Source: Escherichia coli (GTDB lineage Bacteria > Pseudomonadota > Gammaproteobacteria > Enterobacterales > Enterobacteriaceae). Taken from it: a DNA stretch of 64,000 nt. Within the stretch, counting starts at the first letter, position 1. Each line of letters starts with the position of its first letter. The stretch lies in the NCBI RefSeq assembly GCF_001677475.2, contig NZ_CP015229.1, one strand, 5' to 3'. Of the stretch, positions 7,309 to 53,032 are shown in pieces. Under the pieces are notes generated by a model. The model searched no databases, was not told where the DNA came from, and was given only the letters and a program-made list of their open reading frames with translations. The position numbers and the translations under genes are program-made.

Positions 7309-7896
7309 AATTTTTCCTGTCTCCAGGCCCCAAAGTAAATAATAAAAAATTCCTAAAACTTAAGGAAAAAATATGCCCAATAAATTGGCGATGAATGCTG
7401 ATTAAAATCAAGAAAAACTGCCATTAACACATTGAAGTTACTGTTTTTATACATAGATAACAAAACACATATTTAGCGGTTGGTAATTATCACATAATAA
7501 TGTGTGTAAATTGATGGCGGATTGATGCAAATTTGTTAATAGCAATGGTGTTAGCTGCGATTGCGTGCTCAAAAAATAATCTGTAATGAGCATGGGTTGA
7601 CGATATATAATATATTTTTCGTTAAGATTCTTTTTGTATGTTGTTAAAAAATAAAGTAATTTTATCCTGGTTGTATTTTGTTATCAGAACCGACTTGCTT
7701 TTTATTTAATGACTATTCCCATCACAGAAAACGAAGTATCATCTTAAATCGATGCGCGGAAATATTTAACTTGAACAAGCGGAAATAAATAGAGCAGCTA
7801 TTCAGATTATTCTTTATATTGGGGCTATTAAGGTTATGTTAATTGTAGCTTTGCTATGCTAGTAGTAGATTTTTGATAAATGTTTTATGGTCACAA

Positions 7897-8457
7897 ATGA
7901 ACGTGAGTAAGTATGTCGCTATCTTTTCCTTTGTTTTTATTCAGTTAATCAGCGTTGGTAAAGTTTTTGCTAACGCAGATGAGTGGATGACAACGTTTGG
8001 AGAAAATATTACACAAACCTGGCAACAGCCTGAACATTATGATTTATATATTCCTGCCATCACCTGGCATGCTCGTTTCGCTTACGACAAAGAAAAAACC
8101 GATCGCTATAACGAGCGACCGTGGGGTGGCGGTTTTGGTCAGTCGCGATGGGATGAAAAAGGAAACTGGCATGGCCTGTATGCCATGGCATTTAAGGACT
8201 CGTGGAACAAATGGGAACCGATTGCCGGATACGGATGGGAAAGTACCTGGCGACCGCTGGCGGATGAAAATTTTCATTTAGGACTGGGATTCACCGCTGG
8301 CGTAACGGCACGCGATAACTGGAATTACATCCCTCTCCCGGTTCTACTGCCATTGGCCTCTGTGGGTTATGGTCCAGTGACTTTTCAGATGACCTACATT
8401 CCGGGTACCTATAACAATGGCAATGTGTACTTTGCCTGGATGCGCTTTCAGTTTTGA
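7897..8457 (+). CDS. pagP: lipid A palmitoyltransferase PagP (CrcA)
   Basis: ORF 7873..8457; start placed at ATG 7897 giving 186 aa [25 protein letters not shown]... with signal peptide. Confidence 0.9.
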
Positions 8458-8631
8458 GACAAATGAAATTTTAGTAAACTCTTTAAAATCAATGGGTAAA
8501 ATAATTAACATCAAAAATAACGCGACTTTTATCACTTTTTAGTAAAGTTGCACTGGACAAAGCGTACCACAATTGGTGTACTGGTAACCGACACAGCATT
8601 TGTGTCTATTTTTCATGTAAAGGTAATTTTG

Positions 8632-8841
8632 ATGTCTAAGATTAAAGGTAACGTTAAGTGGTTTAATGAGTCCAAAGGATTCGGTTTCATTACTCCGGAA
8701 GACGGCAGCAAAGACGTGTTCGTACACTTCTCTGCAATCCAGACTAATGGTTTTAAAACTCTTGCTGAAGGTCAGCGCGTAGAGTTCGAAATCACTAACG
8801 GTGCCAAAGGCCCTTCTGCTGCAAACGTAATCGCTCTGTAA
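8632..8841 (+). CDS. cspE: cold-shock-domain protein CspE
   Basis: 69-aa ORF from ATG 8632: [33 protein letters not shown]... (RNP1/RNP2 motifs). Confidence 0.95.
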
Positions 8842-8860
8842 GATACGTCAGCAAGAATTC

Positions 8861-8890
8861 AAAACCCGCTTAATCAGCGGGTTTTTTTTG
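8861..8890. terminator. Rho-independent terminator between convergent cspE and crcB
   Basis: Hairpin cccgct/agcggg (8865..8881) followed by a T8 run; A-run on the other side. Confidence 0.7.
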
Positions 8891-8894
8891 GTCT

Positions 8895-9278
8895 TTAGTG
8901 TGCGGTTGAGGCTGAAAACAGCCAGAATGCCAGTGCGGTCATGGCAAAAGAGCCCAGAAGGTTGACGAAAACGTTCAGTAATGCCCAGCCAAAGCGACCC
9001 TCTTGTAACAAAAACACCACTTCTGCCGAAAATGTTGAGAAGGTTGTTAGACCGCCACAAAATCCGGTGGTGATTAATACTTTCCACACTGGATCAATGT
9101 TCGTCATCCTGCTGAACCAGGCGAATCCCATTCCTATGATGAATGCCCCAATCAGGTTTGCTGTCAGCGTCCCCAACGGAATCGCCTGATGCAGTGGGTT
9201 AAATCGCATACTTAACAGCCATCTCGCCACGCTTCCCGTACCACCGCCAATAAAAACTGCTAAAAGAAGTTGTAACAC
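8895..9278 (-). CDS. crcB: fluoride channel CrcB/FluC
   Basis: 127-aa membrane [26 protein letters not shown]... Confidence 0.9.
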
Positions 9279-9370
9279 TGCAAAATCCTGCTATTTGATT
9301 TGTATGAGTGATAAGTGTAACGCCGAATAATCGTCGTTGGCGAATTTTACGACTCTGACAGGAGGTGGCA

Positions 9371-10159
9371 ATGCTGGTTGCTGCAGGACAGTTTGCTGTT
9401 ACATCTGTGTGGGAAAAGAACGCTGAGATTTGTGCCTCGTTGATGGCGCAGGCGGTGGAAAACGACGTATCGCTGTTTGTCCTGCCGGAAGCATTGCTGG
9501 CGCGCGATGATCATGATGCAGATCTATCGGTTAAATCAGCACAGCTGCTGGAAGGCGAATTCCTCGGACGTTTACGGCGAGAAAGTAAACGTAACATGAT
9601 GACGACAATTCTGACGATTCATGTTCCTTCAACGCCGGGGCGCGCATGGAATATGCTGGTGGCACTTCAGGCAGGAAACATCGTCGCCCGTTATGCCAAA
9701 CTGCATCTCTATGATGCATTTGCCATTCAGGAATCACGTCATGTTGATGCTGGTAATGAAATAGCTCCGTTACTGGAGGTGGAAGGGATGAAGGTCGGTC
9801 TGATGACCTGTTATGACTTACGCTTTCCAGAGCTGGCGCTGGCACAGGCATTACAGGGAGCTGAAATCCTGGTAGTTCCTGCCGCCTGGGTTCGTGGGCC
9901 GCTCAAAGAGCATCACTGGTCAACGTTGCTTGCCGCTCGTGCGCTGGATACCACCTGTTATATGGTGGCGGCGGGGGAGTGCGGGAACAAAAATATCGGG
10001 CAAAGCCGAATTATAGATCCCTTTGGCGTCACGATTGCGGCAGCGTCAGAAATGCCTGCACTCATTATGGCGGAAGTGACGCCCGAACGTGTGCGTCAGG
10101 TGCGCGCGCAACTGCCCGTCTTAAACAACCGTCGCTTTGCGCCGCCGCAATTATTATGA
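9371..10159 (+). CDS. ybeM: carbon-nitrogen hydrolase (nitrilase superfamily) YbeM, intact
   Basis: ORF 9365..10159; ATG 9371 with AGGAGG 8 nt upstream; 262 aa; my recollection is that this gene is a pseudogene in K-12. Confidence 0.8.
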
Positions 10160-10287: not shown

Positions 10288-10491
10288 ATGGGTGAGATTA
10301 GTATTACCAAACTGCTGGTAGTTGCGGCGCTGGTCGTTCTGCTGTTTGGGACTAAGAAGTTACGTACGCTGGGCGGAGACCTTGGAGCGGCCATTAAAGG
10401 GTTCAAGAAGGCGATGAATGATGACGATGCTGCGGCGAAAAAAGGCGCAGACGTTGATCTTCAGGCTGAAAAGCTCTCTCATAAAGAGTGA
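10288..10491 (+). CDS. tatE: twin-arginine translocase subunit TatE
   Basis: 67-aa [36 protein letters not shown]... Confidence 0.9.
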
Positions 10492-21917: not shown

Positions 21918-22949
21918 TCAACCGTCGATAAATACGTCCGCCAGGGGTTTATGGCACAACAGAAGAGATAACCCTTCCAGCTCTGCCCACACTGACTGAC
22001 CGTAATCTTGTTTGAGGGTGAGTTCCGTTCGTGTCAGGAGTTGCACGGCCTGACGTAACTGCGGCTGGCTTAAGCGATTTAACGCCTCGCCCATCATGCC
22101 CCGGCGGTTCTGCCATACCCGATGCTTATCAAACAACGCACGCAGTGGCGTATGGGCAGACTGGCGTTTCAGGTTAACCAGTAACAACAGTTCACGTTGT
22201 AATGTGCGCAACAAAATAACCGGCTCGCTGCCTTCCAGACGCAGTTGCTGAAGAATGTGCAATGCGCGCTTGCTTTTGCCCATCAACAAAGCATCGACCC
22301 AATGAAAAGGGGTGAAATGCGCGGCATCATTCACTGCCTGCTCAACGCGCGGTAATGTCAGTTTGCCGTCCGGCCAGAGAAGCGATAAACGCTCCAGCGC
22401 CTGTGCCAGCGCCAGCAGGTTACCTTCATAACAATAGCAGAGCATCTGATTTGCAGCGTCATCCAGTTCTAAGTTGAGCTGTTTTGCACGCGCAGCAACC
22501 CAGCGAGGAAGCTGAGCCTGCTCCGGTGTCTGACAGGTTACCTGCACGCTTCGATTAGCAAGAGCAGTAAACCAGGCAGCATTTTCCTGCGCTTTGCTTA
22601 ATTTATTGCCGCGCACGATCAGCAGCAAATCGTCATGCAGCAGTCCGGTCAGTGTCAGAAGTTGGTCATTGATCGCCGCATTTGGTCCGTTTTCTGGTAA
22701 CAGCAGCAATAGCGTTTGTCGACTGGCGAACAGGCTCATGGCCTGGCATAGCGAAAATATCGCATTCCAGTCGGTGTTGGGATCAATGGAAAAAGTGTGG
22801 TGTTCTGCAAATCCTTGTGCTGCAGCTACCTGACGAACAGCGTCCTGGCTTTCCTGCAACAACAGAGGATCGTTACCAAGCAAAAGATACGCCGCGCGCA
22901 GCCCTTCATTGAGCTGCGCGCGGAGTTGTTCCGGGTACAACCGAATCAT
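21918..22949 (-). CDS. holA: DNA polymerase III delta subunit
   Basis: 343-aa [36 protein letters not shown]...; start overlaps the lptE stop by 1 nt. Confidence 0.95.
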
Positions 22950-23527
22950 CAGTTACCCAGCGTAGTAGAGACGCGTGCAGGCGTTGCTGCAGTATCCGTT
23001 GTTTTCGACGTATCTTCGTCGGAACGGATATCCGCAGCGCGGATGCTTGGCAGCTTACGTATCAGCTGTTCGGCAGCACGGTCGTACATCTCTTGAATGA
23101 TCATGCTTTGCTCATTATCTTTCGCTAACGCCATTTGCGGGTTATCGAAGAACGAACGGAAGACTTTGGCGCTAATCGGGTAGATGTCACGGCCAGGGAT
23201 CAATACTGACGCGCTGACAGTCATCACCATTTGATATTCAGCGGTTTGACCATTACGGAAAACTGAAGCGGTATCCTGGGAGATTGATACAGCACCCAAA
23301 CGCAGGGATGGAACATCCTTACGCGTGGTTTCTTTATCAAGCAACTCAACACCGTTCAGACGCAACTGATTACGCACCGCACGGCTTAACGGCCCGTTCG
23401 GGTCGCCAGAGTCCAGGATCATGACCTTCATAGTGGAAGGAACCTGCGTGGTATCACGCAGATGCCAGCCACACCCGGCGGTGATTAACACCGCCAGAGA
23501 TAACAACAATGTTGCCAGATATCGCAC
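22949..23527 (-). CDS. lptE: LPS-assembly lipoprotein LptE
   Basis: 192-aa [31 protein letters not shown]... (lipobox ITAGC). Confidence 0.95.
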
Positions 23528-23541
23528 GCTTCCTCCCGCGC

Positions 23542-26124
23542 TTAGCCAACGACCAGATTGAGGAGTTTACCCGGTACGTAAATCACTTTACGCACGGTAA
23601 CGCCATCAAGATATTTTGCTACCAGATGTTCCTGGCCAGCACGTTCGCGAACCTGTTCTTCCGTTGCATCTACCGGAACGGTGATTTTGGCACGGACTTT
23701 ACCGTTAACCTGCACCACCACCAGCGTGGAATCTTCCACCATCGCTTTCTCGTCTGCAACCGGCCACGGCGCGTTGTCGATATCGCCTTCGCCTTTCAGT
23801 TCCTGCCACAGCGTGAAGCAGATGTGCGGCGTGAACGGGTTAAGCATACGAACAACGGCCAGCAGGGCTTCCTGCATCAGCGCGCGATCCTGCTCACCAT
23901 CGGTCGGTGCTTTTGCCAGTTTGTTCATCAGCTCCATAATCGCCGCAATTGCAGTGTTAAAGGTCTGACGACGACCGATATCATCGGTCACTTTAGCGAT
24001 AGTTTTATGAACATCACGACGCAGAGCTTTCTGATCTTCAGTCAGTGCGTCAACGTTCAGCGCCGCAACATCACCTTTCGCAGTGTGCTCGTAAACCAGT
24101 TTCCAGACACGTTTCAGGAAGCGGTTAGCCCCTTCAACGCCGGACTCCTGCCATTCGAGAGTCATATCCGCCGGAGAAGCGAACATCATAAACAGACGAA
24201 CGGTGTCCGCGCCGTAACGTTCAACCATCACCTGCGGGTCGATACCGTTGTTCTTCGACTTAGACATTTTGCTCATGCCGGTATACACCAGTTCATGGCC
24301 TGCCGCGTCTTTCGCTTTCACGATACGGCCTTTCTCGTCGCGCTCAACGATAGCATCAACCGGGGAAACCCAGTTACGTTCGCCGTTTTCGCCTACATAG
24401 TAGAAGGCATCTGCCAGCACCATCCCCTGACACAGCAGCTGTTTCGCTGGCTCGTCAGAGTTCACCATGCCTGCATCACGCATCAGTTTGTGGAAGAAGC
24501 GGAAGTAGAGCAGGTGCATGATGGCGTGTTCGATACCACCAATGTAGATATCCACTGGCAGCCAGTAGTTAGCTGCTTTGGAATCCAGCATACCCTCTTT
24601 GTACTCCGGGCAAGTGTAGCGCGCATAGTACCAGGAGGACTCCATAAAGGTGTCGAAAGTATCGGTTTCACGCAGTGCCGGCATACCATTAACGGTGGTT
24701 TTCGCCCACTCAGGATCTGCTTTGATCGGGCTGGTAATACCATCCATTACCACATCTTCCGGCAGGATCACCGGCAACTGGTCGTCCGGAGTAGGCATCA
24801 CAGTGCCGTCCTCCAGCGTCACCATCGGAATCGGTGCGCCCCAGTAACGCTGACGGGAAACACCCCAGTCGCGCAGGCGATAGTTTACTTTACGCTCGCC
24901 AACGCCCATTGCCGTCAATTTGTCGGCAATGGCGTTAAAGGCCGCTTCATGGTCAAGACCGTTGAACTCGCCAGAGTTGAACAGCACGCCTTTTTCAGTC
25001 AGGGCTTGCTGAGAAAGATCTGGCTCAGAGCCGTCAGCTGCCAGGATAACCGGTTTGATATTCAGGCCGTATTTAGAGGCAAACTCGTAGTCGCGCTGGT
25101 CGTGACCCGGAACCGCCATAACTGCGCCCGTGCCGTATTCCATCAATACGAAGTTTGCTGCCCAAACGGGAATTTCTTCGCCCGTTAATGGGTGAACCGC
25201 TTTAAAGCCAGTATCGACGCCTTTTTTCTCCATCGTCGCCATTTCAGCTTCGGCAACTTTGGTGTTACGGCATTCGTCAATAAAGGCCGCCAGTTCAGGA
25301 TTATTTTCCGCCGCTTTCTGCGCCAGCGGATGACCCGCAGCTACCGCCAGGTAGGTACAACCCATAAAGGTGTCCGGGCGGGTAGTGTAAACGGTCAGCG
25401 TGTTGTCATAGTCGTTAACGTTGAAGGTGATCTCCACGCCTTCGGAACGACCGATCCAGTTACGCTGCATGGTTTTAACGGTGTCTGGCCAGTGATCCAG
25501 TTTATCCAGATCGTTGAGCAGCTCGTCAGCGTAAGCGGTGATTTTGATAAACCACTGCGGGATCTCTTTACGCTCAACTTTGGTATCGCAGCGCCAGCAG
25601 CAGCCGTCGATAACTTGTTCGTTCGCCAGTACGGTCTGGTCGTTCGGGCACCAGTTGACCGCAGAAGTCTTCTTATATACCAGGCCTTTTTTATACAGCT
25701 CGGTGAAGAATTTCTGTTCCCAACGGTAGTATTCCGGCGTACAGGTTGCCAGCTCGCGGCTCCAGTCATAACCAAAGCCCAGCATTTTGAGCTGGTTTTT
25801 CATATACGCGATGTTGTCGTACGTCCACGGTGCCGGAGCGGTGTTGTTTTTCACCGCCGCGCCTTCCGCAGGCAGACCAAACGCGTCCCAGCCGATCGGC
25901 TGCAGAACGTTTTTGCCCAGCATGCGCTGGTAACGGGCGATCACGTCACCGATGGTGTAGTTACGTACGTGGCCCATGTGTAGTCGACCAGAAGGATAGG
26001 GAAGCATAGACAGGCAGTAATACTTCTCTTTGCTCTCGTCTTCGGTTACTTCAAATGTGCGCTTCTCATCCCAATGAAGCTGTACTTTGGATTCTATCTC
26101 TTCCGGGCGGTATTGCTCTTGCAT
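23542..26124 (-). CDS. leuS: leucine--tRNA ligase
   Basis: ORF 23542..26148; start at internal Met gives 860 aa [24 protein letters not shown]... with HMGH and KMSKS motifs. Confidence 0.95.
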
Positions 26125-26911: not shown

Positions 26912-27895
26912 CTACAGTAAATCTTCAATCTCACGAATTTCTTGACTGACATCTCTGGTTCCGGATGACTGAACTTTACGATACAGGTCGAGAGCCTGTC
27001 GGAGATCGACAGGTCTTCCTTCTCCGTAGTGATACATAATGGCCAGGTTATACCAGGCAGTGGCGTCATTGCATTCAGCGGCTTTCGTAAACCATTCAAA
27101 GGCGGCCTGATAATCTTTCTCAACGCCTTGTCCGTGTTTATACATATAACCGATGTTGACGTAAGCGCCGACGCTCCCCTGAGCGGCAGCCTTCAGATAC
27201 CAGTACATCGCTTGCTTATAGTCCTGGTCCACCCCTTCGCCAGCGTTATAATCCCATGCAATTTGAAACTGAGCATGCCGATTACCCTGCTGTGCGCTTT
27301 TCAAATACCAGAATGCGGCGAGTGTCTCGTTTTGAGCGACGCCTTTTCCGTCTTCATAAAGATCGGCCAGATTGTTTTGCGCGTCACTATGGCCTTGTAA
27401 TGCAGCTTGTTTGTACCAGAAAAATGCCAGCGTATAGTCTTGTGCGACTCCGTTGCCATTTCTGTACATCCACCCAAGATTATTTTGCGCATAAGACATT
27501 CCGCTCTCCGCGGCTATCTGATACCAGGCAACCGCTTCTTTATAGTTGGGGTCTTCTCCACGATCCAGTATCCAGCCAAGGGCGTTGGAAGCGAAAGTAT
27601 GGCCTTGTAGGGCAGCTTTTTTCAGCCAAAAGATGGCTTGCTCATTATCTTTATGACGGCTTTTATCCTCGGAGTATTTCCGCCCTAAGGAATATTGTGC
27701 TTCACAATGGCTTTGCTCAGCGGCCAGCTTCAGCCAGTAAAAGGCCTTTTCGTCGTCCGGAGAGTCAATTGCGCTATCGCGATTATAATAAAACCCAATA
27801 ATATATTGAGCCTCGCAATCGCCTTTTTCAGCACGTTCGATAATCTCATCTATTGATAAATTATCGCAGCAACTTGACGTAAAAATCATTATCAT
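26912..27895 (-). CDS. ybeQ: Sel1-repeat (TPR-like) protein YbeQ
   Basis: 327-aa ORF with repeated A-x-A-Q-x-x-L-G-x-x-Y-x-x-G-x-G-V units; paralogue of ybeT; start could be 6 nt further in. Confidence 0.85.
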   Translation of the reverse strand: MIMIFTSSCCDNLSIDEIIERAEKGDCEAQYIIGFYYNRDSAIDSPDDEKAFYWLKLAAEQSHCEAQYSLGRKYSEDKSRHKDNEQAIFWLKKAALQGHTFASNALGWILDRGEDPNYKEAVAWYQIAAESGMSYAQNNLGWMYRNGNGVAQDYTLAFFWYKQAALQGHSDAQNNLADLYEDGKGVAQNETLAAFWYLKSAQQGNRHAQFQIAWDYNAGEGVDQDYKQAMYWYLKAAAQGSVGAYVNIGYMYKHGQGVEKDYQAAFEWFTKAAECNDATAWYNLAIMYHYGEGRPVDLRQALDLYRKVQSSGTRDVSQEIREIEDLL

Positions 27896-28052
27896 TTCCT
27901 TATGGTTGTAGATAAAACATATTATATTTTTATGTGTTCCATTTTTGCGTAAACCTTATTTTATGCGTATTATGTTGCGTCAGAAAAGTATAAATAAATG
28001 AGCCTCGCAACGTGGTTAATATTCATTGAATGAATATTTAAGGATAAATTAT

Positions 28053-28759
28053 ATGGACATGGAGTCGCAAAAAATATTGTTTGCACTTTCCACTCCGATG
28101 GAAATACGCAATAAATGCTGTTTACCTTCGCATTCATCCCCCAAAATGTATTTAGGTACATGCTTTTTGACCTTTCTTCCTCATGGGGAATTGATGGCCG
28201 TGATGACCTGCTGCGCACAATTCACCGAATGATCGATAACGGTCATGCCGCGCGGTTGGCAGGGCTTTATCACCGCTGGTTTCGTTATTCTCCGTGTGAA
28301 TGGCGTGACTATCTTGCTGAACTAAATGAGCAAGGTCAGGCTTATGCGCAATTTGTCGCCAGCACCGCCGAATGCTGTGGCGAAGGGGGAATCAAAGCCT
28401 GGGATTATGTCCGGATGGGTTTTTTAAGCCGAATGGGCGTACTTAATAACTGGTTGAGCGAAGAAGAAAGTCTATGGATCCAGTCGCGCATTCATCTACG
28501 GGCGCTACGTTATTATAGTAACTGGCAGCAATACTTTGCCGGTTATACCTTTGGTCGGCAATATTGGCAGTCTCCCGAAGATGATAATCTTCAGTTATTA
28601 CGTGAATTCTTAGCGCGTAAAGAATACGACGATTCCGGCAATGATATGTTTTATCAATTATTTGCCAGTGATGATGCGTATTACCCTACCTTGTCCTGGC
28701 AACCATTGGCTTACTATTCTGCATGCCCGGAAACGCTTAAGGATATGAGCGACCTATGA
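28053..28759 (+). pseudogene. ybeR: DUF1266 protein YbeR, disrupted by a -1 frameshift in a T5 tract (28164..28168)
   Basis: Track ORFs 28026..28232 (frame 3) and 28115..28759 (frame 2) together align colinearly with intact paralogue YbeU; a T6 tract would restore one ~235-aa frame. Could be a sequencing error. Confidence 0.7.
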
Positions 28760-30183
28760 AAAATTGCTGGCAGATCCTCGATATATCTCAAACGACTGAC
28801 GTCGATATTATCCGCCGCGCTTATCTGGCGCTGTTACCGTCCTTTCATCCAGAAACCGATCCGCAGGGTTTTAAACAACTTCGTCAGGCGTATGAGGATG
28901 CGCTACGGATTGCGCAGTCGCCTGCTAAATCTGTTTGGCAACCAGAAGAATATGAGGTAGCAGAACATGAAATTCTGCTCGCCTTTCGCGCGTTACTTGC
29001 CTCTGATAGCGAACGTTTTCTGCCCTCCGCCTGGCAGCGATTCATTCAGCAATTAAATTATTGCTCGATGGAAGAGATTGATGAATTACGCTGGTCGCTG
29101 TGCACAATCGCCATGAACACTGCCCATTTATCCTTCGAGTGCGTGGTGTTATTAGCAGAAAGATTGCGGTGGTTGCAGGAGGAAAACGTCGGGGAAATAG
29201 ACGAAGAAGAACTGGAATCCTTTTTATATGCCATTGCGAAGGGGAATGTTTTTAACTTCCAGACCATTCTGCATCTGCACGTTGCCGTGCAAAATGACAC
29301 TATCGATTTTTACCAAATGTTCGCTCGGATTTGGTTATCGCATCCAGAATGGCTGACATTGTATTTAGCGCAACATCGCGCAGTGATTATCCCCGATGAT
29401 GCAAAACTGCACAGAAATTTACTCCGCTGGTATAGCGCAGGTCGCCTGGGAATCCCCGAACTCCTGGATTACGCCCGGTCGTGGCGGGAAGCTGAACCTG
29501 ATAATGAAGATGCGCGTTATTATGAATACGCACAACGCGTCTATTGTGGAGAAGGCGAAAGCTTGCTGGCAGAACTTTGTGACTACTGGCGCGAGTATCC
29601 CTCCACCCAGGCGGATGCTTTAATGTTGCAATGGTGCCGTCAGCATCGGGTCGATTATTACCCGTTAGTGGTGATGATGATTGAAGCTCGTGAACTGGTT
29701 AACGATCAGGGAAAACCGCTACTTTATATCCCCGGCGACAGCGCCCGTACGCGTTTTCATTTATACGAAATACTCAGCGATGAAAAACTCTCTGCTCTGG
29801 GGCGTTCACTGGTCGAGATGGTTTTGCACAAAGGACGTAAGCCGCGAATCTCACTCACGCGTGATACAGAACATCCCTTATGGCCATTATATTTAGTTGC
29901 TAAACAATTAGTTCAGGCCAGCCAACCGACAGAAGAATCATTAATGCCGATTGTGAGCCGCCTTGATGCAGAAGCTCGTTGTCCACTGGAAGCATTAATG
30001 ATTCGTCGATTATTAATTCAGGCGGCAAATTTTACCGAGAAGCAAACCGTCGAACCGGAGCCGCAACCGCAGCCAATGCCCGTTGACGATGGTGGGCCGG
30101 GCTGTCTGGGCGTCATCAAAATTATTTTCTACATTTTTATCTTTGCCGGTTTGATAGGGAAAATACTCCATCTGTTCGGGTGA
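28756..30183 (+). CDS. djlB: J-domain co-chaperone DjlB (YbeS) with C-terminal transmembrane anchor
   Basis: 475-aa ORF; N-terminal J-like domain with HPE in place of HPD (28846..28854); hydrophobic C-tail [20 protein letters not shown]; ATGA overlap with ybeR. Confidence 0.85.
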
Positions 30184-30192
30184 CAGTCGACG

Positions 30193-30747
30193 TTAATGTG
30201 CGGGAAGCCCGGCAAGTAATCTTTCCGCATTTTTGTAATGTTGTTTGGCGGCCAGTTTTAACCATTTTTGAGATTCATAATGGTTAACATTAATACCTGA
30301 GCCATTTCTGTAGATCAAACCCAAAGTATATTGAGCATGAGCATACCCTTGTTCAGCTGCTTCCTTATACCAGAGAATTGCTTTACGGGTATCGGGTTTG
30401 ACCCCCAGACCTTTGAGGTAGATCCACCCCAGTTTACTTTGCGCGCGTGGATTTTCCTGTTCCGCTGATTGCTCATACCAGTATCTCGCCTGTGTATAAT
30501 CCAGTGGTTTACCGTCGCTACCATGAAGATAAAATTCTCCAAGTCGATATTGCGACGTTGAGTGACCATGAATCGCGGAAAGCTCTGTGGCTGCCGTGGT
30601 GAATGGAAGACTGCCCGGTGAGCTTAAATAATCAAAGGCATAATTCGCCATGGCTTTATCACGCAACGTCGTTTTCTTGGGTTGGCTAATACAGGTTATT
30701 GCTGCAACTATAAATATTGCGAATATATACATTAATTTTTTATTCAT
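30193..30747 (-). CDS. ybeT: Sel1-repeat protein YbeT with N-terminal signal/anchor
   Basis: 184-aa [28 protein letters not shown]... followed by Sel1-like repeats. Confidence 0.85.
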
Positions 30748-30848
30748 GTGTGAATACTTCGATTTTCTTTTTATTTTGAAAGCGTCAAGTTTATACTCAT
30801 CAATAATAAAAAAGTAGTCAGTTAATGCACTTAAGGGATTATTAACAA

Positions 30849-31556
30849 ATGAACAAGGAAGAACAATATCTTCTTTTTGCGCTTTCTGCGCCCATGGAAA
30901 TACTTAATCAGGGTTGCAAACCCGCGCATGACTCGCCAAAAATGTATACCGGGATAAAAGAATTCGATCTCTCATCATCCTGGGGAATAAATAATCGTGA
31001 TGATTTAATTCACACTATTTATCAGATGACCGATGATGGTCATGCTAATGATTTAGCTGGCTTATATCTGACATGGCATCGCTCTTCCCCTGAAGAGTGG
31101 AAAGCATTAATTGCTGGCGGCTCGGAGAGAGGGTTGATTTATACCCAATTCGTTGCCCAAACCGCTATGTGTTGTGGGGAAGGGGGAATCAAAGCCTGGG
31201 ATTATGTGCGGATGGGTTTTTTATCACGGGTTGGTGTGCTCAACAAGTGGCTGACGGAAGACGAGAGTTTATGGCTGCAATCGCGCGTCTATATACGAGC
31301 ACACCATTACTATCACAGCTGGATGCACTATTTTTCCGCCTATTCGTTAGGGCGTCTCTACTGGCAATCTTCTCAGTGCGAAGACAACGCTTCGCTACGC
31401 GAGGCGCTAACCCTGTACAAATACGATAGCGCCGGGAGTCGGATGTTCGAAGAGCTGGCAGCGGGAAGCGATCGTTTCTATGCCACGCTTCCCTGGCAGC
31501 CATTAACTGTCCAGCCTGAATGCCCGGTAACGCTTAAGGATGTGAGCGGCCTATGA
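30849..31556 (+). CDS. ybeU: DUF1266 protein YbeU
   Basis: 235-aa [36 protein letters not shown]...; paralogue of ybeR. Confidence 0.85.
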
Positions 31557-33004
31557 AAACATGTTGGCAAATCCTCGAAATTGAAAGCACGACGCAAATA
31601 GACATTATCCGCCAGGCTTATCTTGCTCGCTTACCGTTGTGTCATCCCGAAACCGATCCGCAGGGGTTTAAAGCATTACGCCAGGCCTATGAAGAGGCGC
31701 TGCGACTGGCGGTAAATCCTGTCGAGGAAGCAGATAATGAAGAAAAAGATGCCACCGCTGAACATGAAATACTACGAGCATTCAGGACATTACTGGATTC
31801 AGAAAGTGATCGTTTTCAGCCCTCCGCCTGGCAGAAATTTATTCAGCAATTAAATACCTGGAACATGGAGGATGTCGATCAATTACGCTGGCCGCTGTGT
31901 GCAATCGCTATAGAAGCGCGATATCTTTCATTAAATTGTGCTTCTTTGCTGGCAGAGCGTTTGAACTGGCATTCGTTTAATGACAGCGAAGGAATGGATG
32001 AGGAAGAAAGGGAGGCTTTTCTTGAGGCCATTCAGGCTGGTGATTGTTTCGATTTCCTTAGCCTTCTGGAATATCCCGTCGCGTTGCAGAACCAGACTGT
32101 TGAGTATTACTTCGCGCTGGAACGCTGCTGCCGTTACCATCCCGACTATGTCACTGCGTTTATGGCAATGGAAGGTCCGTGGTTCATTCCTGATGATGTC
32201 AAGTTACATCGCAAACTGTTGCGCTGGTACAGCTCGGTGAAAACAGGTATGGCGGAACTCATTCCTGTTGCCCAACAGTGGCAAGCAGAAGAACCAGAAA
32301 GCGAAGATGCCCGTTATTACCAGTGTGCGCAACGGTTGTACTGTGGCGAGGGGGAAAGCCTGCTTGCCGATCTCTGCGCATACCGGGAGAGTTACCCATC
32401 TACACAAGCCGATAATTTGTTGTTGCAGTGGAGCAAGCGTCATTGCCCGGATTATTTCGCGCTGTTAGTGATGGTTATCGAAGCGCAGAGCATGGTTGAT
32501 GCGCAAGGTCAACCGTTGAAATATGTTCCTGGTGAGAGCGCCCGGACGCGGCTGTTATGGGCGGAAATTTTACATAGCGGAAAATTATCGCCGTTAGGTC
32601 AATCGTTTATTGAGTCGTTATTCTTCAAGCGCAAAGCATGGGCGTGGTGGAAATCGAGAGTCGGTAGCGAGACAGAACAAGATTCACCGTTACTGGATTT
32701 GTATCGGGTAGCGGAACAGGTTGTGCTGGAAGCGTTCCCGAAACAAGAGATGCTGGCCCGTCTTAATACAAGGCTGGAAGGTGGAGATGCTCATCCATTA
32801 GAGGCCATTATCACCCGGATGCTGTTGACGAAAGTGAAACTCGAGCCGGAGGATGAAGATGTCGATGAGACAACACCTGAAAACCACGAAGAAATAAATG
32901 ATGAGGATGAAAAACCACAGAGCATTACCAGCATTATCAAAATCAGCTTAACGGTGCTGGTGATAGGTTATGCTCTCGGAAAAATCGCGATGTTGTTTAG
33001 CTGA
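31553..33004 (+). CDS. djlC: J-domain co-chaperone DjlC (YbeV) with C-terminal transmembrane anchor
   Basis: 483-aa ORF paralogous to DjlB; HPE at 31643..31651; acidic region then hydrophobic tail [18 protein letters not shown]; ATGA overlap with ybeU. Confidence 0.85.
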
Positions 33005-33019
33005 GGAAGTGTTTTTTGC

Positions 33020-33043
33020 GCCGATGCCGGATGCAGCGTTTAT
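33020..33043. repeat. left half of a REP-like palindromic unit split by the IS insertion
   Basis: gccgatgccggatgcagcgtttat; its inverted partner gccgcatccggcagccg lies at 34480..34496 on the far side of the IS. Confidence 0.6.
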
Positions 33044-33566
33044 TGAACTGCACCCCAAATGTTGGACATAATCTGACATCTGAAGGTGCAGTTTATGAAA
33101 CATTCATTTGAAGTAAAACTTGCCGCTGTAAATCATTACCTGGCTGGTCATGCAGGCATCATTTCTACGGCAAAACTCTTTCAACTTTCTCACACCAGCC
33201 TCTCACACTGGATTAATCTTTTTCTTCTTCACGGTCCTCGGGCACTGGATTGCAGACACAAGCGTAGCTATTCTCCTGAAGATAAACTTTGCGTGGTTCT
33301 TTATGCTCTCGGGCATTCTGAGTCTCTACCCCGGGTAGCTGCCCGGTTTAACATTCCCAGCCACAACACGGTTAAAAACTGGATAAAAGGCTACCGCAAA
33401 TCTGGTAATGAGGCCTTTATCAGGCGCAGGAAGGAGAAAAGCATGACCCGTTCTGATGATACCCATGAAAACGAGGCAAACATGACGCCGGAAGAGATGA
33501 AGAATGAGCTGCGTTATCTTCGCGCAGAAAATGCATATCTGAAAGCCATGCAGGAGCATCTCCTGG

Positions 33567-34477
<911 letters not shown>

Positions 34478-34499
34478 ATGCCGCATCCGGCAGCCGTGT

Positions 34500-36170
34500 T
34501 TAAGGGATCTCAATAGCCAAATAATCGCTCGCCCGTCGCCGAACTTCATCGACGCGGGCCATATCGTTTGACTGCAACGCCGCATCAAAATCGGTGATCA
34601 CCCGGCCGATCTCTTCTCGCTCGTCACCCAGCGCCCGCGCCCACAACTCTTCCAGTTTTGCTTTAAAGGTACGGTTGATGAGCATATCGCGCGGATAAAT
34701 TTTCAATGCGGATAACCGCGTCCGACTCTCTTCAATCTGCTGTGCGCTCAATGTTACAGGACTGTGATTAATGACTCTGGACTTAACGCTGCCGTCTTCC
34801 AGAAGCACGTCAACTTCAAGCAACCCGTTGATATCATAACTAAAGCGAATATCAATCGACTGATAAGCCCCGGTTTTCTTCAACGGCACATCGAAGGATT
34901 CCACCAGAATGTTATTTTTAACTTTGTGGTTTTCTCCCTGATAGACGTTAACCGTAATTGAATCCTGTTCCGGGTGCATGGTCGAGTAAGTTTCTACACG
35001 CGACACCGGTACAGTGGTGTTTCGTTCAATAATCGGCGAGAAAATGCCGGAAACGCCCTGGCGGTTAACTTCAACACCCAACGAGTAAGGGCAAATATCA
35101 GTGAGGATCACCTCTTCAATATCTTCACTGCGTAAGCGGCAGGCGGCCTGGATTGCTGCGCCCAGCGCGACAATGGTGCTCGGGTCGTAACTTTGATATG
35201 GTAATTTGCCAAACAGACGTACGGCGATTCGCTGCACCAGCGGCATTTGTGATGCGCCGCCAACCAGCACCAGACTGTCGATTTGACTTGGCTTCAGACG
35301 TGCATCGCGCAACGCCTGTTCAATCGGTACTCGCAAGCGATTGAGCAGCGGCAACCACAAATCTTCCAGTTCGTTTTCGTAAAATTCGCACTTACGCGTT
35401 TCTTCCTGATACTGCCAGCTAATTTGCAGCGGTAATTGATTGCCGCATTTTGCCGCTTCCACGCTGGTGTACAGGGCTGCCAGCTCACTTTCGTTGAGCA
35501 TGTTTTTAGCCACTGCGGCGCGTTTTAAAACTTCATCCACCAGCATATGAGTAAAATCTTCGCCGCCAAGAAAGTTGTCGCCAGCGGAGGCGTGAACTTC
35601 AATCACCGGCGTGGCGTATTCGAGCACCGTGACGTCAAACGTGCCGCCACCGAGATCAAAAACCAGCGAGCGGGTATTTTGTTGCGTATGCAGGCCATAT
35701 GCCATCGCAGCTGCTGTGGGTTCATTAATTAAGCGTACCGCATTTAACCCGGCTAACTCCGCTGCTAAACGGGTATGCTTGCGTTGTTCATCGCTGAAAT
35801 AAGCCGGAACGGAGATCACCACATCTTTAATCGGACGTTGCAGAAATTCTTCGGCATCTTCTTTTAATGAGCGTAATACCAAAGAGGACAGTTCTGGCGC
35901 GTTAAATGTATCGCTGCCTAACCGCCAGTTGGTATTACTGCCCATTGCACGTTTAAATAACGCTGCCGTTTTATCCGGATGCGAAGTGCGCCGTGATACA
36001 GCCGGTTTTCCGACTAAAATATGATTATTTTCATCCATGCTAATTATGGATGGTGTTAAATATTCACCGAACTTATTTGGAATTAATTGCGCGGCACCGT
36101 CTTTCCAGACGGCAATTAAACTATTGGTAGTACCGAGATCGATACCAATGGCGAGTTCTGCATTATCCAT
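34500..36170 (-). CDS. hscC: specialised Hsp70-family chaperone HscC
   Basis: 556-aa ORF MDNAELAIGIDLGTTNSLIAVWKDG... with Hsp70 ATPase signatures (DLGGGTFD). Confidence 0.9.
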   Translation of the reverse strand: MDNAELAIGIDLGTTNSLIAVWKDGAAQLIPNKFGEYLTPSIISMDENNHILVGKPAVSRRTSHPDKTAALFKRAMGSNTNWRLGSDTFNAPELSSLVLRSLKEDAEEFLQRPIKDVVISVPAYFSDEQRKHTRLAAELAGLNAVRLINEPTAAAMAYGLHTQQNTRSLVFDLGGGTFDVTVLEYATPVIEVHASAGDNFLGGEDFTHMLVDEVLKRAAVAKNMLNESELAALYTSVEAAKCGNQLPLQISWQYQEETRKCEFYENELEDLWLPLLNRLRVPIEQALRDARLKPSQIDSLVLVGGASQMPLVQRIAVRLFGKLPYQSYDPSTIVALGAAIQAACRLRSEDIEEVILTDICPYSLGVEVNRQGVSGIFSPIIERNTTVPVSRVETYSTMHPEQDSITVNVYQGENHKVKNNILVESFDVPLKKTGAYQSIDIRFSYDINGLLEVDVLLEDGSVKSRVINHSPVTLSAQQIEESRTRLSALKIYPRDMLINRTFKAKLEELWARALGDEREEIGRVITDFDAALQSNDMARVDEVRRRASDYLAIEIP

Positions 36171-37306: not shown

Positions 37307-38032
37307 TTAATGCAGGATTTTCGCGAGGAAGTCTTTTGCGCGGTCCGATTTCGGATCATCGAAGAAAGCGTCTTTCGGCGAGTCTTCGACAATTTTACCC
37401 TCGTCCATAAAGATCACCCGATTCGCCACTTTACGGGCAAAGCCCATTTCGTGGGTCACCACCATCATGGTCATTCCTTCATTCGCCAGTTCGACCATTA
37501 CGTCCAGCACTTCGTTGATCATCTCCGGATCCAGCGCCGATGTCGGTTCGTCGAACAGCATCGCGATAGGATCCATGCACAATGCGCGAGCGATCGCCAC
37601 ACGCTGCTGCTGACCGCCGGAAAGCTGCGCCGGAAACTTATTGGCATGTGCGGAAAGCCCGACGCGCTCCAGCAATTTCAATGCTTTTTCACGAGCGGGT
37701 GCTTTATCGCGTTTAAGCACTTTCACCTGCGCCAGGGTCAGGTTTTCAATAATCGACAAATGGGGGAACAACTCGAAATGCTGGAACACCATTCCCACAC
37801 GGGAACGCAGCTTCGCCAGATCGGTTTTCTTATCGTTCACCACGATGCCATCGACGGTGATTTCACCTTGCTGCACCGGTTCGAGGCCGTTAACGGTTTT
37901 AATCAGCGTTGATTTACCGGAGCCAGATGGGCCGCAAACCACCACCACTTCGCCTTTTTTCACTTCCGTTGAGCAGTCGGTCAGCACCTGAAAGTGACCA
38001 TACCATTTTGAAACATTTTTCAGGGTAATCAT
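37307..38032 (-). CDS. gltL: glutamate/aspartate ABC transporter ATP-binding protein
   Basis: 241-aa ORF with Walker [10 protein letters not shown] and LSGGQQQR signature. Confidence 0.95.
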
Positions 38033-40524: not shown

Positions 40525-40842
40525 ATCCAACTCCTTTATCTTCTGCGTTAAGAACGCATGGATACCTGTTGTGAGTGTTTGTGTTGTTATCATCTGCAAC
40601 TTTATTGTGCAGTGTTGTGCCTGTTAGGTAACATTTAGTTTGGCTAAATGTAAAGATATTGCTGTTTTATTGTTTGTTTTTGCGAGTTGCGCCGCACCAT
40701 TCCGAAGCAAAATTCTTAAAATGCACTCTTTTGGTGCTACCCGTGGATTGCTGTGGTGCAACCGGGTTGTACTGATGCTGGTTCACGCTTTGCCTTGTAT
40801 AACAAAGCAATAGATGTGCCAAAGTTGGATAGGGGAATTTTG

Positions 40843-40880
40843 TTATCCGGATAACGCACTGATGCCGCATCCGGTGAGCG
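40843..40880. repeat. REP-like palindromic element in the lnt-gltI spacer
   Basis: gttatccggataacgcactgatgccgcatccggtgagcg; GCCGGATGCGGCG-type palindrome. Confidence 0.5.
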
Positions 40881-40920
40881 TGCCGAAATACGGGATGTAT
40901 TCCGGCACGATAAGAAGGGA

Positions 40921-46678: not shown

Positions 46679-47854
46679 ATGACAAATCAACCAACGGAAA
46701 TTGCCATTGTCGGCGGAGGAATGGTCGGCGGCGCACTGGCGCTGGGACTGGCTCAGCACGGATTTTCGGTAATGGTTATCGAACATGCCCAACCTGCACC
46801 GTTTGTCGCTGACAGCCAGCCGGACGTGCGGATCTCGGCGATTAGTGCGGCTTCGGTATCATTGCTTAAAGGGTTAGGGGTCTGGGATGCAGTACAGGCT
46901 ATGCGTTGCCATCCTTACCGCAGACTGGAAACGTGGGAGTGGGAAACGGCGCATGTGGTGTTTGACGCCGCTGAACTTAAGCTACCGTTGCTTGGCTACA
47001 TGGTGGAAAACACTGTCCTGCAACAGGCGCTGTGGCAGGCGCTGGAAGCGCATCCGAAAGTAACGTTACGTGTGCCAGGCTCGCTGATTGCGCTGCATCG
47101 CCATAATGATCTTCAGGAGCTGGAACTGAAGGGCGGTGAAACGATCCGCGCGAAGCTGGTGATTGGTGCCGACGGCGCAAATTCGCAGGTGCGGCAGATG
47201 GCGGGAATTGGCGTTCATGCCTGGCAGTATGCACAGTCGTGTATGTTGATTAGCGTACAGTGTGAGAACGATCCCGGCGACAGCACCTGGCAGCAATTTA
47301 CCCCGGATGGACCTCGTGCGTTTCTGCCGTTGTTTGATAACTGGGCATCGCTGGTGTGGTATGACTCTCCGGCACGCATTCGCCAGTTGCAGAATATGAA
47401 TATGGCGCAGTTACAGGCGGAAATCGCGAAGCATTTCCCGTCGCGTCTGGGTTACGTGACGCCACTCGCCGCGGGGGCGTTTCCGCTGACGCGCCGCCAT
47501 GCGTTGCAGTATGTGCAACCGGGGCTTGCGCTGGTGGGCGATGCGGCGCACACCATTCATCCGCTGGCGGGGCAGGGGGTGAATCTTGGTTATCGTGATG
47601 TCGATGCCCTGATTGACGTTCTGGTCAACGCTCGCAGCTATGGCGAAGCGTGGGCCAGTTATCCGATCCTCAAGCGTTACCAGATGCGGCGCATGGCGGA
47701 TAACTTCATTATGCAGAGCGGTATGGATCTGTTTTATGCCGGATTCAGCAATAATCTGCCGCCGCTGCGTTTTGTGCGTAATCTTGGTTTGATGGCGGCG
47801 GAGCGTGCTGGCGTGTTGAAACGTCAGGCACTGAAATATGCGTTAGGGTTGTAG
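46679..47854 (+). CDS. ubiF: 2-octaprenyl-3-methyl-6-methoxy-1,4-benzoquinol hydroxylase
   Basis: ORF 46673..47854; 391 aa from MTNQPTEIAIVGGGMVGGALALGL (FAD-binding GxGxxG). Confidence 0.9.
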   Translation: MTNQPTEIAIVGGGMVGGALALGLAQHGFSVMVIEHAQPAPFVADSQPDVRISAISAASVSLLKGLGVWDAVQAMRCHPYRRLETWEWETAHVVFDAAELKLPLLGYMVENTVLQQALWQALEAHPKVTLRVPGSLIALHRHNDLQELELKGGETIRAKLVIGADGANSQVRQMAGIGVHAWQYAQSCMLISVQCENDPGDSTWQQFTPDGPRAFLPLFDNWASLVWYDSPARIRQLQNMNMAQLQAEIAKHFPSRLGYVTPLAAGAFPLTRRHALQYVQPGLALVGDAAHTIHPLAGQGVNLGYRDVDALIDVLVNARSYGEAWASYPILKRYQMRRMADNFIMQSGMDLFYAGFSNNLPPLRFVRNLGLMAAERAGVLKRQALKYALGL

Positions 47855-47869
47855 CCTTACAACATTGCC

Positions 47870-47935
47870 GGATACATGCCAACCGTAGGTCGGATAAGAC
47901 GCGTCAGCGTCGCATCCGACTTTGAAGGATAAGAC
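47870..47935. repeat. REP/BIME-type palindromic repeats downstream of ubiF
   Basis: gtaggtcggataagacgcgtcagcgtcgcatccgac and related units. Confidence 0.55.
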
Positions 47936-47969
47936 GTGTCAACATCGCATTCGACATTGAATATACGCA

Positions 47970-47999
47970 GAAAAGCAAAAAGCTCGCCGAAGCGAGCTT
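47970..47999 (-). terminator. Rho-independent terminator of the tRNA operon
   Basis: Hairpin agctcgccgaagcgagct with a minus-strand U-run (plus-strand aaaagcaaaaa). Confidence 0.7.
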
Positions 48000-48007
48000 T
48001 TTTAATG

Positions 48008-51811: not shown

Positions 51812-53032
51812 TCAATTTTCCAGCAAATGCTGGAGCAAAATACCGTTGAGCATGGCGCGTTTTACCAGCGCAAAAGCGCCGATTGCCGAGCGGTGATCCA
51901 ACTCAGAACGTACCACCGGTAGATTAGTACGAAACGCCTTCAGCGCCTGGGTATTAATGCAGCTTTCAATAGCAGGGAGCAGCACTTTATCGGCTTCGGT
52001 GATTTCTCCAGCAATAACAATTTTTTGCGGATTAAATAAGTTGATAGCAATGGCGATGGTTTTACCCAGATGACGACCGACATATTCAATCACTTCCGAG
52101 GCCAGGCTATCGCCTTTGTTCGCGGCTTTGCAGATAGTTTTGATGGTGCAGTCGTCCAGTGGCACACGGCTCTGGTAGCCCTGCTTTAATAAATTCAACA
52201 CCCGTTGTTCAATGGCAGCGTTGGCAGCGATAGTTTCCAGGCAGCCGAAGTTGCCACAGTGGCAGCGTTCTCCCAGCGGTTCAACCTGAATATGACCAAT
52301 TTCACCGACGTTGCCGTTGCGGCCGATAAAAATGCGCCCGTTAGAGATGATTCCAGCCCCCGTTCCGCGATGCACGCGCACCAGAATGGAGTCTTCGCAA
52401 TCCTGACTTGCACCGAAGTAGTGCTCTGCCAGCGCCAGACTGCGGATATCGTGGCCGACAAAACAGGTCACTTTAAAACGCTCTTCCAATGCTTCTACCA
52501 GCCCCCAGTTTTCTACCTGAATATGCGGCATGTAATGAATTTTGCCGCTGTCCGGGTCAACAAGTCCTGGCAGGATCACGGAAATGGCGATCAGCTCGCG
52601 CAGCTTGCGCTGGTAGCTATCAATAAACTGAGCAATGGCGTTAAGCAGGGCATGTTCCAGCGTCTGCTGGGTACGTTCCGGCAGCGGGTAATGTTCTTCT
52701 GCCAGCACTTTGCTACTGAGATCAAACAAGGTGATGGTGGCGTCGTGACGACCAAGCCGTACGCCGATTGCGTGGAAATTGCGGGTTTCGGTGACGATGG
52801 AGATAGCGCGGCGGCCCCCGGTGGAGGCCTGCTGATCAACTTCTTTGATCAGCCCGCGTTCGATAAGCTGACGCGTAATTTTGGTTACGCTGGCGGGGGC
52901 AAGCTGACTTTGCTCGGCAATCTGAATCCGCGAGATTGGCCCATACTGGTCAATCAGGCGATAAACCGCCGCGCTGTTAAGCTGTTTTACGAGATCAACA
53001 TTACCTATCTGAGCTTGTCCGCCTGGTGTCAT
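51812..53032 (-). CDS. nagC: N-acetylglucosamine repressor NagC (ROK family)
   Basis: 406-aa ORF with N-terminal HTH and ROK Cys/His cluster (CHCGNFGCLE). Confidence 0.95.
   Translation of the reverse strand: MTPGGQAQIGNVDLVKQLNSAAVYRLIDQYGPISRIQIAEQSQLAPASVTKITRQLIERGLIKEVDQQASTGGRRAISIVTETRNFHAIGVRLGRHDATITLFDLSSKVLAEEHYPLPERTQQTLEHALLNAIAQFIDSYQRKLRELIAISVILPGLVDPDSGKIHYMPHIQVENWGLVEALEERFKVTCFVGHDIRSLALAEHYFGASQDCEDSILVRVHRGTGAGIISNGRIFIGRNGNVGEIGHIQVEPLGERCHCGNFGCLETIAANAAIEQRVLNLLKQGYQSRVPLDDCTIKTICKAANKGDSLASEVIEYVGRHLGKTIAIAINLFNPQKIVIAGEITEADKVLLPAIESCINTQALKAFRTNLPVVRSELDHRSAIGAFALVKRAMLNGILLQHLLEN

Follow-up and report, generated by a model that had tools for sequence, protein, structure and literature searches.

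The ybeM locus and its product

The sequence analysed here, referred to as the window, is a stretch of 64,000 nucleotides of Escherichia coli DNA in which ybeM is surrounded by cspE, crcB, tatE and lipA in the K-12 gene order. An open frame extends on the plus strand from 9365 to 10159 and comprises, from the ATG at 9371, 262 codons followed by a TGA. In random sequence, a stop-free run of this length would be expected by chance at a rate of (61/64)^262, about 3e-6. The elements of the locus are the following:

8895..9278, minus strand: crcB (fluoride channel), divergent upstream neighbour, intact, 98.7% identical to MG1655 crcB
9360..9365, plus strand: Shine-Dalgarno sequence AGGAGG, with a 5-nt spacer to the ATG, read directly from the sequence
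9371..10159, plus strand: ybeM coding sequence, deaminated glutathione amidase, Nit1-type CN hydrolase (open reading frame, Pfam, NCBIfam, NCBI protein ANO87814.1)
10288..10491, plus strand: tatE, downstream neighbour, 100% identical to MG1655 tatE

The first-pass annotation of this DNA had described ybeM as an uninterrupted gene of 262 codons with a good ribosome binding site, and both statements hold: the AGGAGG lies 5 nt before the start codon, and the 789 nt of the window gene equal the length of the RefSeq coding sequence that UTI89 and ST2747 have at this locus (deaminated glutathione amidase by PGAP). The crcB-ybeM-tatE synteny is identical in the window, MG1655, UTI89 and ST2747. The exact 262-aa protein is already present in NCBI (ANO87814.1 and others, as "deaminated glutathione amidase [Escherichia coli]") where it belongs to a cluster of 3,131 sequences at 90% identity, and it also occurs in independent assemblies, with 47 blocks of the collection listed and 24 carrying contigs read. 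An exact 60-mer from the window ybeM had no match among the GTDB r220 species representatives.

At the level of expression signals, a simple scan found no convincing sigma-70 promoter upstream of ybeM (two sites where 2.0 were expected, and neither in the orientation of the gene), and the promoter and terminator scan for ybeM gave nothing above the shuffled expectation. In the Rfam search of the window the only match was a cspA-type element at cspE. This cspA thermoregulator (RF01766; 123 bits, gathering score 78) occupies 8531-8889 on the plus strand, covering the cspE leader and coding sequence, and a hairpin resembling an intrinsic terminator follows at 8861-8885. In the lineage of the window, ybeM is presumably expressed in vivo.

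Assignment of ybeM to the CN hydrolases, also proposed in that first pass, is confirmed by profile scores. Residues 3-245 of YbeM cover positions 2-255 of the 256 in the Pfam CN_hydrolase profile PF00795 (E=3.3e-41, 141.8 bits against a gathering score of 23.2), which places the protein in the superfamily. Within it, the NCBIfam model for deaminated glutathione amidase (NF033621, EC 3.5.1.128) is matched over 2-260 of 260 with 449.7 bits, above its cutoff of 355. With NF007757, the model for YafV-type or Nit2 omega-amidases, YbeM scored 61.4 bits (cutoff 249) and with the nitrilase model 60 bits (cutoff 500), so that it qualifies for neither; scores for aliphatic amidase, Lnt, NAD synthase and all other NCBIfam CN-hydrolase models were likewise far below their cutoffs. 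Among solved structures, the top relatives are C. elegans NitFhit (1EMS; 104.5 bits, 6e-29) and yeast NIT2 (4H5U; 98.4 bits, 4.5e-27), which we take to represent the Nit1 branch, followed at lower scores by mouse Nit2 (2W1V; 80.2 bits, 1.6e-21) and yeast Nit3 (1F89; 75.0 bits), which we take to represent the Nit2/omega-amidase branch. By bit score, YbeM is nearer to the Nit1-branch structures than to the Nit2/omega-amidase ones.

The E-K-C catalytic triad, which had been singled out earlier for verification on the translation, is present and aligns with that of 1EMS and 4H5U:

9488..9490, plus strand: GAA, Glu40, catalytic glutamate; its LPE motif aligns to LPE of 1EMS and 4H5U
9698..9700, plus strand: AAA, Lys110, catalytic lysine; YAKLHLYD aligns to YNKLHLFD (1EMS) and YQKLHLFD (4H5U)
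9809..9811, plus strand: TGT, Cys147, catalytic nucleophile; TCYDLRFPE aligns to ICYDVRFPE (1EMS)

Cys147 moreover aligns with the residue at which PDB entry 4HGD departs from 4H5U (C to S). The members of the eukaryotic Nit1 family (mammalian Nit1, yeast NIT2/YJL126W and C. elegans NitFhit) resemble YbeM in the CN-hydrolase domain, the triad and the assigned reaction, although the similarity in sequence is only moderate when the alignments are judged by eye. Unlike them, YbeM carries neither a Fhit fusion nor a targeting sequence, and it lacks an insertion of the yeast protein, located between alignment residues 209 and 207, where the match splits. E. coli YafV, of the Nit2-type omega-amidases, has the superfamily in common with YbeM and a different locus. 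Within the species, the counterparts in UTI89 (WP_001298343.1) and ST2747 (WP_001305561.1) differ from the window YbeM by three and two residues, respectively, and equal it in locus, 262-aa length and triad; private to the window protein are two conservative substitutions, A29V and L169V.

Literature matching the gene name as a whole word contained no enzymology of ybeM; E. coli YbeM itself was reportedly assayed on deaminated glutathione by Peracchi et al. in 2017. YbeM is a cytoplasmic Nit1-type carbon-nitrogen hydrolase that, by homology, would convert deaminated glutathione, N-(4-oxoglutaryl)-Cys-Gly, into 2-oxoglutarate and Cys-Gly; this substrate is a by-product formed when transaminases act on glutathione. 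In such a reaction the thiol of Cys147 would act as the nucleophile and Glu40 as the general base, Lys110 would stabilise the intermediate, and the outcome would be the repair or salvage of a metabolite. Both the substrate and the repair role are suggested by the family annotation and by the work on Nit1, an enzyme that hydrolyses deaminated glutathione arising from transaminase side reactions and so permits the recovery of 2-oxoglutarate, cysteine and glycine (PMC7041631).

The K-12 frameshift and its distribution

The statement, in the first-pass annotation, that ybeM is a pseudogene in K-12 proved right. MG1655 ybeM (b4581; 658,031-658,818) is annotated as a pseudogene of 788 nt in NC_000913.3, and the lesion comes down to one missing nucleotide:

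9570, plus strand: G absent from K-12 MG1655 ybeM, second base of codon Arg67 (CGT), at column 231 of the pairwise alignment

The deletion allele of the K-12 type has lost this single base pair in codon 67 (GGACGTTTA to GGACTTTA), and the window, which retains the G at 9570, does not carry it. Besides the missing G, the window and MG1655 genes are separated by 12 substitutions across the coding sequence (98.4% nucleotide identity). In MG1655 the frame halts after 75 residues (the ORFs there measure 77 and 187 aa), and the separate ORF of 187 aa covers the remainder, so that the N-terminal product retains Glu40 and loses Lys110 and Cys147. When the G is restored in silico, the K-12 gene encodes a protein with five residues different from that of the window; three non-synonymous changes (V33A, V37A and H124R) are private to K-12 with respect to the window, UTI89 and ST2747. 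The 1-bp deletion in codon 67, in K-12 as in a wider natural clade, truncates the enzyme ahead of two of its three catalytic residues.

The frequency of both alleles was determined among complete RefSeq E. coli genomes, 5,424 of 5,426 of which contain ybeM. The K-12 deletion allele, identified by an exact 80-mer centred on the deletion, is present in 859 of the 5,424 (~16%), and the intact allele, identified by the exact window 81-mer with the G, in 3,533. Besides the K-12 derivatives MG1655, C600, DH5alpha and J53, the carriers of the deletion include isolates of human (stool), chicken, dog and bovine mastitis origin. Among them is strain 300709 (human stool, Mozambique), which over 3 kb at this locus has 99.94% identity to MG1655 and whose gene is marked "frameshifted" by PGAP. 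In a wider clade the frameshift thus occurs as a natural allele; it is neither a laboratory lesion nor one limited to K-12. Intact ybeM is the majority state and presumably the ancestral one; because it is the majority state, its presence is by itself weak evidence of lineage, excluding K-12 and telling little else.

In pairwise comparisons, dN/dS lies at 0.05-0.08 when only the three intact alleles are compared and at 0.11-0.23 whenever K-12 is included, all values being based on small counts. The former range indicates purifying selection, and the two together fit with constraint on the intact alleles and relaxation in the K-12 pseudogene.

Divergence from K-12 and lineage of the window

A comparison with MG1655 and other E. 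coli genomes, which the first pass had proposed, puts the origin of the window outside K-12, as was claimed there. The window is colinear with MG1655 648,662-712,687 in five BLAST blocks of 96.8-98.5% identity, and the overall identity is 97.55%, corresponding to 1,531 differences over 62,534 aligned bases (median of 2.0% per 500 bp). A complete match to MG1655, which would have spoken for K-12, is therefore not what was obtained. Of the 56 K-12 protein-coding genes wholly inside the window, 55 are intact and the only disrupted one is ybeR. Three further sites bear on the comparison:

28053..28759, plus strand: ybeR, frameshifted by the loss of 1 bp in a T run (T6 to T5, 28164-28168) (alignment to MG1655 ybeR)
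33044..34475, plus strand: IS1397 (IS3 family), 1,432 bp, between djlC and hscC (gap in colinearity with MG1655; annotated hits)
40624..40628, no strand: empty site where MG1655 has IS5D (687,851-689,045) (junction of BLAST blocks and MG1655 annotation)

The absence of the K-12 IS5D copy, located between gltI and lnt, sets the window apart from K-12 genomes, and IS1397 adds to this. Taken together, the evidence for a non-K-12 origin is overwhelming; it derives mainly from the divergence and the IS content, and ybeM is its weakest element. The K-12 deletion is missing from the window because this DNA stems from a different lineage, diverged by ~2.45% from MG1655 over 62.5 kb. An IS element and the ybeR frameshift had also been put forward as pointers to a different lineage, and this is correct only for the former, since IS1397 is absent from the site in MG1655 and the ybeR lesion is a strain-level feature.

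Matches to the insert at 33044-34475 annotate it as "IS3-like element IS1397 family transposase". The element interrupts the loop of a REP palindrome, which in K-12 reads GCCGGATGCAGCG-TTTA-CGCCGCATCCGGC, with duplication of TTA(T); IS1397 reportedly prefers this kind of target. Compared with the GF131 copy, orfB of the window copy is truncated by a CAG to TAG change at about 33847, so that this copy of the element is probably inactive. The insertion is lineage-wide, because all three sister assemblies support the identical site: GCA_019141245.1 and SRR11608754 run into IS1397, and GCA_043014985.2 stops exactly at the insertion point. GF131 itself was rejected as a close relative since, despite the common IS1397 site, it is 97.7% identical over 28 kb; the coincidence is probably due to the REP-loop target preference or to local exchange. 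Regarding ybeR, two assemblies 99.96-99.97% identical to the window have T6 and an intact gene of 235 aa, hence the frameshift is not a lineage marker, and the T5 run reflects either a mutation that arose very recently or possibly an error in the homopolymer.

Some differences in gene content were also observed across the window. The window, MG1655 and GF131 all contain the block ybeQ-ybeR-djlB-ybeT-ybeU-djlC-hscC (26912-36170), which UTI89 and ST2747 lack, rihA coming directly after ybeL in both. In the gltI-lnt spacer (40525-40920), the window and ST2747 have no insert, MG1655 has IS5D, and UTI89 and GF131 have a 1.9-kb gene for a rhomboid-family protease.

The position of this lineage within the species was examined against the 5,426 complete RefSeq E. 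coli genomes, in which the best identities were 98.1% (1-25000), 98.2% (36000-60000) and 98.3% (40000-64000); sampled genomes including O157:H7, B2 strains and K-12 ranged from 97.2% to 98.2%. Over the citE-leuS core, the window is 97.78% identical to MG1655, 97.47% to UTI89 and 98.26% to ST2747. Calibrated on the 98.15% that separates MG1655 from UTI89 over the same core, these identities place the window inside E. coli on a branch of approximately phylogroup-level length. The lineage is a real one that has been sequenced more than once, in draft assemblies of SRA and PulseNet style: the Logan assembly of SRR15047267 is 99.99% identical to the window over 20,159 bp, GCA_043014985.2 matches it at 100% over 10,287 bp, the T5 run of ybeR included, and GCA_019141245.1 and SRR11608754 are the two T6 assemblies mentioned above. 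A Shigella origin, considered in view of the IS element and of the want of E. coli matches above 98.3%, was discarded on the grounds that ybeR is the only gene disrupted out of 56, that a single IS is found in 64 kb and that the NCBI proteins are labelled E. coli.

A tract of ~2.7 kb at ~22,250-25,000, which takes in the 3' end of holA, the whole of lptE (22949-23527, minus strand) and the 3' half of leuS, departs from this general pattern. Here the window differs by ~3-15% per 250 bp from MG1655, UTI89 and ST2747, whereas these three differ mutually by 0.4-4%. None of the lptE genes in 5,424 complete E. coli genomes exceeds 93.5% identity to that of the window. K-12, UTI89 and ST2747 encode one identical LptE protein, from which the window allele deviates at about a dozen positions including a one-residue deletion; in global alignments with K-12 LptE it has 180 identical residues compared with 184-185 for E. 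albertii alleles, that is, the window LptE is further from the K-12 protein than that of E. albertii. The exact LptE protein of the window is present in NCBI as ANO87830.1. A search with a degenerate 16-residue LptE peptide among the GTDB species representatives had Escherichia sp. E1V33 as its sole match. This organism, 91.5% identical overall and ~8% different in the lptE core, was rejected as source of the window and as donor of the tract.

The simplest reading of these sequence comparisons is that the holA-lptE-leuS tract would have been imported by recombination from a divergent, unsampled Escherichia. The broader proposal of a lineage without a close relative among complete RefSeq genomes that carries an essential-gene tract imported from such a source is offered tentatively, at somewhat below even odds. 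Elsewhere, several pieces of 500 bp or so lie 5-8% off MG1655 (1001-1500, 7501-8000, 35001-35500, 37501-38000, 47001-48000 and 52001-52500, among others), and such pieces may be additional recombination tracts. Genes located in these more diverged pieces include ubiF (94.6% identical), gltL (95.2%) and hscC (95.9%).

Readings of the intact ybeM

Positions 9371-10159 very probably represent the intact, ancestral-type allele of the core gene ybeM, encoding a Nit1-type amidase, in an E. coli lineage other than K-12. A different view of the enzyme is that it is an intact CN hydrolase acting on another substrate, be it 2-oxoglutaramate, as in Nit2-like omega-amidases, or a small amide, in which case the present name would be a product of annotation transfer. 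The function of YbeM does come from profile annotation only, and the Nit1 and Nit2 branches are related, to the point that YbeM also matches mouse Nit2 at 1.6e-21. Nevertheless, Nit1-type structures score above Nit2-type ones, the 61 bits to NF007757 stand far under the 249 of its cutoff, and E. coli already possesses a cited 2-oxoglutaramate amidase in YafV (PMC8711792), which makes this change of substrate unlikely. Slightly less credit still is given to the idea that the intact gene is effectively silent or dispensable and heading for loss as in the K-12 clade, its integrity being without functional meaning. This would agree with the 859 of 5,424 complete genomes that tolerate the frameshift, with the lack of a clear promoter in the scan, with the absence of an overt phenotype upon Nit1 loss in mice, yeast and Arabidopsis (PMC7041631), and with the very weak, FliA-independent expression of a ybeM translational fusion in Salmonella (bioRxiv 10.1101/2020.09.09.289983). 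However, ongoing constraint is suggested by the lower dN/dS of the intact alleles compared with the K-12 pseudogene, the gene is kept in all but two of 5,426 genomes, and in the uropathogenic strain CFT073 it is transcribed and responds to NO and NsrR, given the NsrR ChIP-seq peak in the crcB/ybeM region and the 0.30-fold expression with NO in a triple mutant (PMC5320621).

That the source might be K-12 or a derivative, with the intact ybeM explained by reversion or by an assembly artefact, has in its favour the gene order colinear with MG1655 and retains practically no probability. It is already refuted by the 1,531 differences over 62.5 kb, and the missing IS5D, the presence of IS1397 and the recurrence of the same ybeM in independent assemblies of the lineage also go against it.

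For an ordinary, already known core gene that is intact here as it usually is, the consequences of the ancestral-type reading are mostly practical. K-12 coordinates and annotations should not be transferred blindly to this DNA, where ybeM is a real gene, ybeR is broken and the IS content is different. A common assumption also needs correction, as the ybeM frameshift is a natural allele in hundreds of isolates and an intact gene is the norm. Knowledge of the enzyme family is changed neither by the intact gene nor by the distribution of the frameshift, and the practical value is small; still, the ~16% of genomes with the frameshift constitute ready natural knockouts in which to ask if the repair of deaminated glutathione matters in bacteria.

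An additional observation concerns the interior of the gene. Out-of-frame fragments of UTI89 ybeM cause filamentation when over-expressed, and one of them, of 29 bp, encodes MFLQRRGAH (PMC6206680). The corresponding ORF is also found in the window, out of frame inside ybeM at 9621..9764 on the plus strand, where it comprises 47 codons and starts with the same MFLQRRGAH.
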